Shown in pieces: positions 25,342 through 27,764 of a stretch of DNA of 64,000 nt. The DNA is taken from assembly GCA_017437125.1 (NCBI GenBank), contig JAFSBV010000024.1, positions 32,263 through 96,262 of the forward strand. The letters run 5' to 3'. The stretch is from Bacteroidales bacterium. Its GTDB lineage: Bacteria; Bacteroidota; Bacteroidia; Bacteroidales; UBA932. Positions within the stretch are counted from its first letter, which is position 1. The number at the start of each line of letters is the position of its first letter. The notes below the pieces were generated by a model. That model had not been told where the DNA came from, searched no databases, and was given only the letters and a program-made list of their open reading frames with translations. Position numbers and translations under genes: made by a program.

Positions 25342-25426
25342 TGTCATCCTGATCTTCCCATGTCATCCTGAGTTTTCCCATGTCATCCTGAGCTTCCATT
25401 GTCATCCTGAGCGGAGCGAAGGATCT
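25342..25426 (+). repeat. REP-like element GTCATCCTGAGCGGAGCGAAGGATCT preceded by three truncated tandem copies of its 5' end
   Basis: TGTCATCCTGA at 25342, 25361, 25381 and 25400; the last continues as the full hairpin (ATCCT...AGGAT). Confidence 0.75.
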
Positions 25427-26094: not shown

Positions 26095-26153
26095 ATAAAC
26101 CTCAGGTGTATTCTTCCTTGGAAGCATTCAATCCTCACGAATCCTCCTGACCC

Positions 26154-26290
26154 TCCCGTCCGTAAATCCGGCTGTTTTACGGATGGGATGCCTAAATCAG
26201 CTATCGTTGTCCGTAAATCGGGGCATTTCACGGATGACATCCTCGAATCTATCCTTTTCGTCCGTAAATCAGACTATTTTACGGATGGGA
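26154..26290. repeat. Left palindrome array: 3 units, 51-bp period
   Basis: GTCCGTAAA-N9-TT(T/C)ACGGAT-G(GG/AC)A starting at 26158, 26209 and 26260; the third unit overlaps the transposase stop codon. Confidence 0.9.
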
Positions 26291-27215
26291 TTGATGATTG
26301 TTGAGGGAAAAGTTCATTAAGAATGCCTATGTCAAGTTTCAGGAGACGCCGGATCTGCTGGTTTGAAGCGTTGTATTTGAAATGCAGTTCCTTGGACATC
26401 TGGATCTTTTGCTCTGGGCTCAGGAGTGACAGCTGTCTGCTGCCATAAGCCTTTTCTGCATACATGGCAGCAGCAGCATACAACTCGTCATCAGTAAGAA
26501 ACACTGAATCCTTTAATCTTTGAGCAATCTGGCTGAATGCTTCTGCGTTGCGTGTCAATGAGTTGAAGTAACTTCGTGCATCCCTGAACATGCTTTCCCC
26601 GATATCGGTTCTGCAGAAAGACGGTATATAAACAACGTCTCCCAAGAACTTCAGATCTTCAATCAACCTTACCTCTCGGAAACGAGTCAGTTCACGCGCT
26701 TTGTTAAATCCCAATTCCTTTAAAGTTCTGGCAGGTAATAGATTGAAGAAGGGCAAGAAATAAGCACAACCACCTCCCCATGGATAGCTGAAAGGTGTAA
26801 ATTGCGGATTGGCGACAAAGGCGTTGCGGTTTACATAAATAATTTCATTCCGGAGAGCGATAAGAGTTTCGATCGGCAGTATGTCAGCCTTGAATGCTTC
26901 CCAGTCGATAACCCGCTCTGTTGTCTTGAGAATTCTTCGGAGACGAGCCTTGAATCTTTCGAAAAGTTCCATGCAGTCTTCTGCCTCTCCGTTCAATATC
27001 ATATGAATATGATTGCTCATAAGCTCGAATGTGATGATTCTGACCTTTTTGAACAATACTGCTGCGACTGCCAGAGCTGTCATTGCAATCTTGAAATCTT
27101 CCTCACTATATAGGAAATCCCCCATGACCCTGCCGTCTGTATATATATGCCAGAATGGTTCGGACTCTTCAAATAATCTCTCACACTTCCTTTCCTTTTC
27201 TGCAAATGTCAGCAT
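26274..27215 (-). mobile_element. Y1/HUH tyrosine transposase family protein (RAYT/IS200-like) with C-terminal HTH extension (313 aa)
   Basis: HUH motif LMSNHIHMIL, catalytic-Tyr segment LRNEIIYVNRN, YPWGG (cf. YPWSS), and a C-terminal helical HTH-like region; flanked by palindromic repeats. Confidence 0.8.
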
Positions 27216-27226
27216 GTAAACTTTAT

Positions 27227-27499
27227 TTAGAAGATACTGTATGAGTCAGCCGGAGAAAGCTTTCCTGAATACTGCGGTTTGAAAGGACGTCTCAGCTTGA
27301 TGGCGACCTTTTCTTTTACTTTGTATATCTGTCTGAATAATCTGACAGCATCACGCAACGTCCATGCAGAAGCTAAAGCGATTCCGTCTCCTTGCTGGCG
27401 ACAAACAGTGTATGCTGTATGTGGAATCTTTGACTCGGCATCGAATGCCGGTACAGTCATTACATCAAGATAAATGATTTCCGTCGTTCCCATAATCAA
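27227..27499 (-). CDS. Hypothetical protein (88-90 aa), co-oriented 11 bp upstream of the HUH gene
   Basis: Protein-like composition, lies between a -7 box and the HUH gene; alternative start 27493. No family recognised. Confidence 0.6.
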   Translation of the reverse strand: MIMGTTEIIYLDVMTVPAFDAESKIPHTAYTVCRQQGDGIALASAWTLRDAVRLFRQIYKVKEKVAIKLRRPFKPQYSGKLSPADSYSIF

Positions 27500-27569
27500 A
27501 TATTTAAGTGAATGTCACTTTGATGCCATTTGATCGTGGATGGCGAACCAGAGGAGTTCAAAGATGGAA

Positions 27570-27577
27570 CAAATATA
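27570..27577 (-). promoter_or_regulatory. -7 promoter box for the hypothetical-HUH operon
   Basis: Plus-strand CAAATATA reads TATATTTG on minus. Confidence 0.6.
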
Positions 27578-27622
27578 GACTTAATATTCGGAATAGCAAT
27601 TGTTTAGCTGGTATATTTTCTC

Positions 27623-27759
27623 TGCCGTCCCTAAAAAAGCCCATTTTACGGATGACAGTATAGTAAGGTACTCTCTCGTCCGTAATATTGGCTGTTTTAC
27701 GGATGGGATGCCCCTAAAGGTGACTGTTGTCCGTAAATCCGGCTGTTTTACGGACGGGA
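27623..27759. repeat. Right palindrome array: 3 units, 51-bp period, same orientation as the left array
   Basis: Units start at 27627, 27678 and 27729; the unit at 27729 differs from the unit at 26158 by 1 base in 31. Confidence 0.9.
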
Positions 27760-27764
27760 TACAG

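Follow-up and report, generated by a model that had tools for sequence, protein, structure and literature searches.

We describe a locus in a 64,000-nucleotide stretch (the window) of contig JAFSBV010000024.1, from the Bacteroidales bacterium assembly GCA_017437125.1, in which the gene for a 313-amino-acid (aa) Y1 HUH protein lies between two arrays of short palindromes spaced at exactly 51 bp. In our analysis the locus is best read, with a probability of about 70%, as REPtron-like: palindromes resembling REPs (repetitive extragenic palindromes) together with their cognate resident endonuclease of the RAYT (REP-associated tyrosine transposase) or TnpA-REP type. We favor this reading over a new kind of system because the gene is resident and single-copy, because its cognate palindromes are found both beside it and dispersed, and because they have been amplified in one relative. 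The locus lies between recO and a U32 gene and comprises the following features.

26095 to 27845, no strand: inserted segment from the recO stop to the U32 stop, absent at the empty site of a congeneric species
26150 to 26302, no strand: left array (three units of 51 bp, head-to-tail), 3' of the HUH gene; hairpin cores 26158-26183, 26209-26234, 26260-26285
26274 to 27215, minus strand: 313-aa Y1 HUH protein with a RAYT-like N-terminal catalytic domain (H69, H71, Y127) and a helical C-terminal extension of ~170 aa
27227 to 27493, minus strand: small partner gene, 88 aa from an ATG at 27493 or 90 aa from a TTG at 27499
27494 to 27610, minus strand: putative operon promoter and conserved 5' leader; -7 box TATATTTG at 27577-27570, TTG 19 nt upstream, hairpin in the leader
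27619 to 27763, no strand: right array (three units of 51 bp, head-to-tail), 5' of the operon; hairpin cores 27627-27652, 27678-27703, 27729-27754
27767 to 27825, no strand: long inverted repeat, ACCGCCTGT...ACAGGCGGT, separating the right array from the U32 stop

Two arrays of palindromic units

The palindromic unit, TCCGTAAA-N9-TTTACGGA, occurs at 26158, 26209 and 26260 and again at 27627, 27678 and 27729, with start-to-start distances of 51, 51, 1367, 51 and 51 bp. A minus-strand operon of two genes therefore has three units to its left and three to its right, and all six point the same way. The units share an asymmetric foot, (c/t)gTCCG...CGGA(t/c)g, and since it is the same on the plus strand in all six, they are arranged head-to-tail. 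Loops and linkers vary in sequence and are constant in length, and every unit contains an A-tract and a T-tract. An earlier note, made from the sequence alone, had reported six units of one orientation with an exact 51-bp period and length-conserved loops and spacers; inspection of the sequence, a repeat finder and a pattern search all bear this out.

The arm consensus given in that note is exact in half of the units, and the other three carry one arm mismatch each (TTTCACGGA at 26209, GTCCCTAAA at 27627 and GTCCGTAAT at 27678). The last unit, at 27729, ends in GGAC instead of GGAT, and its stem and loop are identical to those of the hairpin at 26158. The stop codon of the HUH gene (26274-26276) falls within the hairpin of the innermost left unit. 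A search with the TCCGTAAA pattern, allowing up to three mismatches, returned 12 matches, which are the six sites on both strands; the shuffle expectation was 0.10, with a maximum of two in 100 shuffles, and the search found no unit in the 64-kb window beyond the six. Folded as single-stranded DNA (ssDNA), four of the six units perform far better than shuffles on either strand, with z between -3.4 and -5.2 on the plus strand.

The 3' end of the HUH gene runs into the left array, which probably forms part of the HUH transcript, and REPs are known to stabilize mRNA in E. coli. These two facts would suit an account in which the arrays work as transcribed RNA, as CRISPR-like repeat-spacer arrays or as hairpins that stabilize mRNA or terminate transcription, unconnected to HUH catalysis. 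We consider this very improbable, as the units have no Rfam match, no defense-system protein was matched in PADLOC, the stems are not followed by a U-tract and the units co-vary with the lineage of the HUH protein (see below). A CRISPR in particular is contradicted by loops that differ among units, unlike CRISPR repeats, and by linkers of ~16-24 nt, CRISPR spacers being about 30 nt long.

A RAYT-like catalytic domain with a helical extension

Both motifs that had been pointed out in the 313-aa open reading frame (ORF), NHIH and IIYVNRN, are present. The first, N68-H69-I-H71, aligns with the HUH motif of ISDra2 TnpA. Y127 and N131, which form a YxxxN motif, sit on a modelled helix (residues 118-135), so placed that a single tyrosine lies C-terminal to the core. 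In an alignment of 27 homologues reaching down to 21% identity, N68, H69, H71, Y127, N131, W146, Q287 and R290 are invariant. An AlphaFold model was built from this alignment (pLDDT 90.9), and its residues ~20-135 have as their top Foldseek matches IS608 TnpA, ISDra2 TnpA and the E. coli TnpA-REP structure 4er8, each with a probability of 1.0. The TM scores on the target against 2a6o, 2xo6 and 4er8 are 0.48-0.61 over 105-133 columns, and the family profile finds ISDra2 among PDB sequences at E=0.009. The protein has the HUH motif, the catalytic-type tyrosine and, in the model, the IS200-type fold of the Y1 HUH superfamily, and it scores below the Pfam threshold.

The Pfam Y1_Tnp model PF01797 is matched by 16 of the 27 family members at E<0.1 (best 1.2e-6), and the NCBIfam RAYT model NF047646 by 12 of them at E<0.01 (best 1.7e-11); the IS200 model is matched by one.

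Residues ~140-305 form a confidently modelled helical extension. No Pfam family, Bac_DnaA_C, HTH_23 and HTH_28 included, matches residues 140-313. When the domain was modelled alone (pLDDT 82), a fold search of the PDB gave nothing significant (best E=2.7), and a profile of the region matched no PDB sequence. The last three helices show weak, non-significant fold matches of sigma-region-4, Hin and DeoR-like type. The extension described in the earlier note as resembling a helix-turn-helix (HTH) is therefore real as a helical domain in the model, and its HTH character is at most hinted at, with no significant fold match.

A fixed period across unrelated stems

Flanking palindromes spaced at 50-52 bp, with lineage-specific stems, for example GTGTGCAAA, GGCCAGAAA, CGAACAAA, TTGCAGCA and TTAACGTGCA, were already seen in an initial set of 28 homologous loci of congeneric genomes. 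We then took a further 80 homologous loci from named metagenome-assembled genomes (MAGs), mostly Candidatus Cryptobacteroides together with other Bacteroidales of animal guts, and applied a palindrome detector that is independent of any sequence motif. Of 90 distances between neighboring palindromes, 57 fall at 50-52 bp, 50 of them at exactly 51 bp, and most of the remainder are multiples of 51. Strong palindromes are enriched about 6-fold in the gene flanks of these loci, and 800 random regions of this genome contain no palindrome neighbors at 51 bp. Tandem palindromes at a fixed 50-52 bp thus accompany homologues down to about 25% identity. Judged by these sequences, a stem that is wholly different between lineages and a 51-bp period that nevertheless persists are a trait of the family.

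The stems are conserved as stems. Over 95 units, 781 of 855 stem pairs (91%) are Watson-Crick, despite the differences between lineages. Within one array the stems are ~100% conserved, compared with 20-60% for loops and linkers. At the array ends conservation extends ~5 nt to each side of the hairpin (CTCCG...CGGAG) and no further, and at many homologous loci the first downstream hairpin abuts the end of the HUH gene (gap about 3-5).

Array size is not fixed. The symmetric three-plus-three layout, which the earlier note had taken for a feature of the system, gives way to 2+2 or 3+3 units among orthologues and to 4+4, 3+7, 6+2 and other combinations in other lineages, the longest array among the 80 loci having seven units (L106). 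In one six-unit array the same block of three units is present twice, and arrays therefore also grow by block duplication.

The HUH family comprises more than 1000 protein clusters, mostly unannotated, with a few JGI entries labelled 'RayT'. Among 401 genomes across Bacteroidales, the full-length form was found only in this genus. Other Bacteroidales families have relatives of ~190-210 aa that consist of the N-terminal domain only and match the family profile at E values of 1e-11 to 1e-20. At 20 loci of these short (~200-aa) relatives there are no 51-bp arrays; at many of them the gene is bracketed by two long palindromes of a single family, near-perfect and with stems of 12-17 bp and 3-nt loops.

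A second REPtron-like locus is present in the same genome (contig C63:33100-35040), with a 25%-identical paralogue at C63:33555-34430. Its palindrome, CCGCTCAATGG-N14-CCGTTGAGCGG, has a spacing of 61 bp on the upstream side and of 121 bp on the downstream side, where it has five copies, and recurs as singletons on five other contigs. We also noted a 56%-identical paralogue at C32:32210-33007 with an in-frame TAA and a GGCCAGGAAA-type hairpin upstream; from its sequence it is probably a pseudogene. In a clade of 53-57% identity (L073, L077, L079 and L107), a pair of GC-rich hairpins, GAGCGAGCCCTTCGGCGTGGCTCGC and GCGGCTGGCCGGCATATTTGCCAGCCGC, lies upstream of the HUH genes, 39.5 bp apart, and in L079 a GGCCAGAAA-type unit adjoins this pair. 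The idea that all spacings are multiples of ~10.2 bp was dropped, most of the 40-44 bp cases being unrelated GC-rich hairpins or non-unit palindromes beside arrays.

Such constancy of spacing raises the question of whether the arrays act mainly as duplex DNA, offering the C-terminal domain phased binding sites or a curved scaffold in the manner of an operator, an iteron or a centromere-like element. A period of 51 bp would in that case correspond to about five turns of the helix, so that successive palindromes would share one face. The exactness of the period while all other sequence turns over would fit, as would the 61 and 121 bp of the distant paralogue, which are also whole numbers of ~10.2-bp turns, the A-tract and T-tract of each unit, the sigma-region-4, Hin and DeoR-like matches of the last three helices, and wobble pairs that show no strand bias. 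Those fold matches are not significant, however (best E=2.7), the arm centers lie ~17 bp apart, a poor fit to a dimer bound on one face, and duplex binding alone leaves the solo doublets, the 75-copy amplification and the gain and loss between species (all described below) unexplained. As the principal function we think it improbable, though duplex binding can coexist with the REPtron-like reading.

Dispersed units and amplification in a relative

Outside the cassette, this genome (G000) has four intergenic TCCGTAAA doublets, each at 51 bp, and one singleton. This genome-wide count, which the earlier note had proposed as a check, was extended to relatives. Five of them carry the TCCGTAAA hairpin in 5-14 copies at 51 bp or multiples thereof, and the genome with the 71% orthologue (G043, locus L059) has ~75 copies in arrays of one to eight units. 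The amplified units of G043 are conserved over their whole length, linker included, and many of the arrays (L135-L154) are embedded in a larger repeated element whose head, TGATTATCCG..CAGTGCAGTAAACTGTTCGCGC, is conserved. In one G043 array (L151), the 51-bp register continues into hairpins of another family, TCCGGAAA...CCCGGA.

The dispersed sites differ between species. Two doublet sites are occupied in G041 and empty in this genome, and two other doublets of this genome are orthologous with doublets of G043. The intergenic DNA flanking the solo doublets is too diverged between species to place exact insertion boundaries. Within one cassette, units of the left array can match units of the right array exactly in stem and loop.

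A resident, vertically inherited gene

In a congeneric species (G008, L158), recO and the U32 gene converge so closely that their stop codons overlap, leaving no sequence in between; because this site is empty, positions 26095-27845 of the window are an insertion. In at least four species the same recO/U32 site holds HUH proteins of 82-88% identity, flanked by 2+2 or 3+3 units at exactly 51 bp, and they have diverged about as much as recO and the Ham1-like neighbor. The comparison of recO-U32 synteny thus yields both the empty site and the persistence of the gene. The 71% orthologue of G043 is at a different locus. No genome contains near-identical HUH paralogues, the highest nucleotide identity within any one genome being 84%. 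On these sequence comparisons, the HUH gene is single-copy per subfamily, resident and vertically inherited.

It is in this light that an autonomous IS200/IS605-like insertion sequence (IS) has to be weighed, with two to four same-orientation hairpins per end and with the solo doublets as end-only derivatives akin to MITEs (miniature inverted-repeat transposable elements) or PATEs (palindrome-associated transposable elements). Hairpins of the same orientation on both sides do recall IS200/IS605 ends, the cassette is an insertion relative to the empty recO/U32 site, the 71% orthologue is at another locus, and genomes contain several paralogues, some with in-frame stops. On the other side stand the lack of any within-genome pair above 84% nucleotide identity, the orthologues fixed at one locus in at least four species and diverging like their neighbors, and the RAYT model, which far more family members match than match the IS200 model. 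We therefore hold an autonomous element to be improbable.

From its sequence, the long inverted repeat at 27767-27825 probably either acts as a terminator or marks a boundary of the inserted segment; the orthologue L055 has a similar hairpin 41 bp from its first unit. The junction itself is variable: in G002 (L157) a gene of ~380 aa with a GHSLGG (lipase class 3-like) motif replaces the cassette, and in the species with the 84% orthologue (L049-L054) a 376-aa gene stands alongside it.

The small partner gene and the operon promoter

The second ORF of the operon is a real coding gene, because substitutions between orthologues pile up at third codon positions (8/8/31, 16/12/38 and 13/12/38 at codon positions one, two and three in the orthologue comparisons) and because homologues exist (35 clusters, down to 47% identity, none of them named). 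The likely start is the ATG at 27493, which shortens the 90-aa product first proposed to 88 aa. The protein has no match in Pfam, NCBIfam or PADLOC, and in PHROGs one marginal hit of unknown function (E=0.0099). Most other cassettes have just ~1040 bp between their arrays, room for one gene, and the partner gene is therefore restricted to the lineage with the TCCGTAAA hairpin. The gene noted earlier as a partner is thus genuine and is confined to that lineage, most cassettes being single-gene.

The Bacteroidetes promoter consensus for the -7 box is TAnnTTTG. By comparison with it, we infer that TATATTTG, found where a -7 box had been reported before the minus-strand operon, would serve this role. 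In a three-species alignment, the ~110 non-coding nucleotides upstream of the partner gene are better conserved than the coding sequence. The conserved 5' leader contains a GCCAT-N10-ATGGC hairpin (in 27494-27610), which may be a regulatory site.

Away from the cassette, a distinct repeat, TGTCATCC(T/C)GA.., occurs four times at a spacing of 19-20 bp 3' of the Ham1-like gene and is followed by a complete palindrome (25342-25426). It recurs within the coding region of rsgA (31279-31329) and is unrelated to the units that flank the HUH gene.

Comparison with described systems

The closest counterpart is the REPtron (E. coli YafM/RayT, 4er8; Pseudomonas; Stenotrophomonas; class 2 TnpA-Y1 in PMC6006769). 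Both have the Y1 HUH fold with NHxH and YxxxN, cognate palindromes on both sides of the gene (3+3 here) and in intergenic DNA, one gene copy per subfamily with vertical inheritance and gene-repeat co-evolution, several gene/repeat families in one genome, and amplification in some hosts. They differ in that the units described here are head-to-tail, with an exact family-wide 51-bp period and no GTAG, whereas those of REPtrons form inverted pairs. The protein here is about twice as long, with an unmatched C-terminal extension of ~170 aa, and scores below the curated RAYT cut-off. Copy number is low in most genomes, and the TCCGTAAA lineage has its small partner gene.

The nearest relatives in other Bacteroidales families correspond to Bacteroidetes TnpA-Y1 subclass 2.6, with proteins of ~180-200 aa and flanks with 'atypical secondary structures' (Quentin et al., 2018, PMC6006769). 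Their N-terminal domain is matched by our family profile; they lack the C-terminal extension, and the 20 loci inspected have long palindromes and no 51-bp array. TIRYTs, or subclass 2.1 (PMC3733652; Bertels group 1), share with our family a long Y1 protein with a C-terminal helical, HTH-type extension. They are bracketed by terminal inverted repeats, often GGGGWSAS, with no adjacent REP-like hairpins, in contrast to the direct hairpin arrays seen here, and the Bac_DnaA_C, HTH_23 and HTH_28 models find no match in the 313-aa protein. The IS200/IS605 elements IS608 and ISDra2 have the same catalytic fold and same-orientation sub-terminal hairpins at both ends, and no target duplication is expected of either them or the cassettes. 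Our cassettes differ from them in having no multiple identical copies, several fixed-period hairpins per end, no TnpB and long-term residence. The BIME-2 (bacterial interspersed mosaic element) arrays of E. coli and the head-tail REP dimers (Di Nocera et al., 2013, PMC3733652) are also regularly spaced tandem palindromic units of variable number. BIME units alternate in orientation, however, and their spacing is bound to one repeat family rather than kept across unrelated stems.

In the TnpA-Y1 classification of Quentin et al. (2018, PMC6006769), no subclass combines these motifs, this length and these repeats, and the word 'tandem' does not occur. Head-tail REP dimers and tandem reiteration in GTAG families are reported by Di Nocera et al. 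(2013, PMC3733652), as are TIRYTs bracketed by inverted repeats. Fixed-period head-to-tail arrays flanking RAYT-type genes are described in neither paper, though other literature may hold an example. The 313-aa protein likewise falls outside any characterized RAYT group with a tandem layout. The earlier view that the layout is not a canonical RAYT/REPIN or IS200 one stands as far as tandem fixed-period arrays are concerned; the locus still fits the RAYT/REP paradigm.

Several observations weigh against that assignment. The 313-aa protein itself scores 14.8 bits with PF01797, below the 23-bit cut-off, and 15.4 bits with NF047646, below the curated cut-off of 80 bits. The units have neither a GT[AG]G 5' tag nor the inverted pairing of REPINs and BIMEs, their foot being (C/T)GTC on the plus strand and all of them head-to-tail. 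The copy number of TCCGTAAA is low in this genome, 15 units, where classical REPs typically exceed 100. Two comparisons favored neither strand as the one that folds: the summed fold energies of the six units are equal on the two strands (-40.4 and -39.5 kcal/mol), and stem mismatches number 20 G-T against 32 A-C (p=0.13). The A-C excess over G-T is found at foot positions 13-16 and may reflect the conserved asymmetric foot alone. MAG assemblies can collapse identical repeats, so that an IS-like multicopy state could be hidden. Finally, known RAYT biology does not account for an exact period that survives complete turnover of sequence, and such a period may indicate a function at the level of double-stranded DNA.

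A possible mechanism

If the N-terminal domain behaves as TnpA-REP and IS200/IS605 TnpA do, it would recognize the hairpin, with its stem of 8-13 bp, on ssDNA, for example at the replication fork. It would cut and rejoin DNA beside the hairpin by means of Tyr127 and a metal site at His69/His71, and in doing so would duplicate or relocate units. Dispersed units mainly take the form of a head-to-tail doublet of ~102 bp, and the arrays at the gene and elsewhere expand and contract by whole 51-bp units. Gene and hairpin co-evolve, so that each protein lineage has its own stem sequence. For a REP, cleavage on both sides, guided by the tag, has been reported (Corneloup et al., 2021, PMC8266576).

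The 51-bp period might come from the geometry of the enzyme, from hairpin-binding site to cut sites, or from bound proteins being phased every five helical turns or so. The former can be taken further. The HUH domain and the C-terminal extension would together cut at fixed distances on both sides of the hairpin, the right cut site of one unit being the left cut site of the next. Excised units of 51 nt, or doublets of 102 nt, would rejoin beside existing units and so build head-to-tail arrays in fixed quanta, and the 61/121-bp period of the distant paralogue would be a second setting of the ruler. This elaboration is possible, and we regard it as unlikely rather than implausible.

Implications for the family

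The REP/RAYT pair is the best-studied case of a domesticated transposase that lives with its own miniature repeats. What is known of it comes nearly all from Proteobacteria, where the repeats occur in inverted pairs. The Bacteroidales HUH family offers a second solution, with head-to-tail units and an exact spacing that outlasts complete turnover of the hairpin. So strict a constraint on length suggests that there is a physical ruler, whether the enzyme itself or an assembly of protein and DNA supplies it. The family also provides natural contrasts for studying how such repeats spread, namely genomes with 5 to 75 copies, filled and empty doublet sites, and a paralogue with a 61/121-bp period. 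Were the ruler to lie in the enzyme itself, these arrays would represent ruler-based array building by a single-strand transposase.

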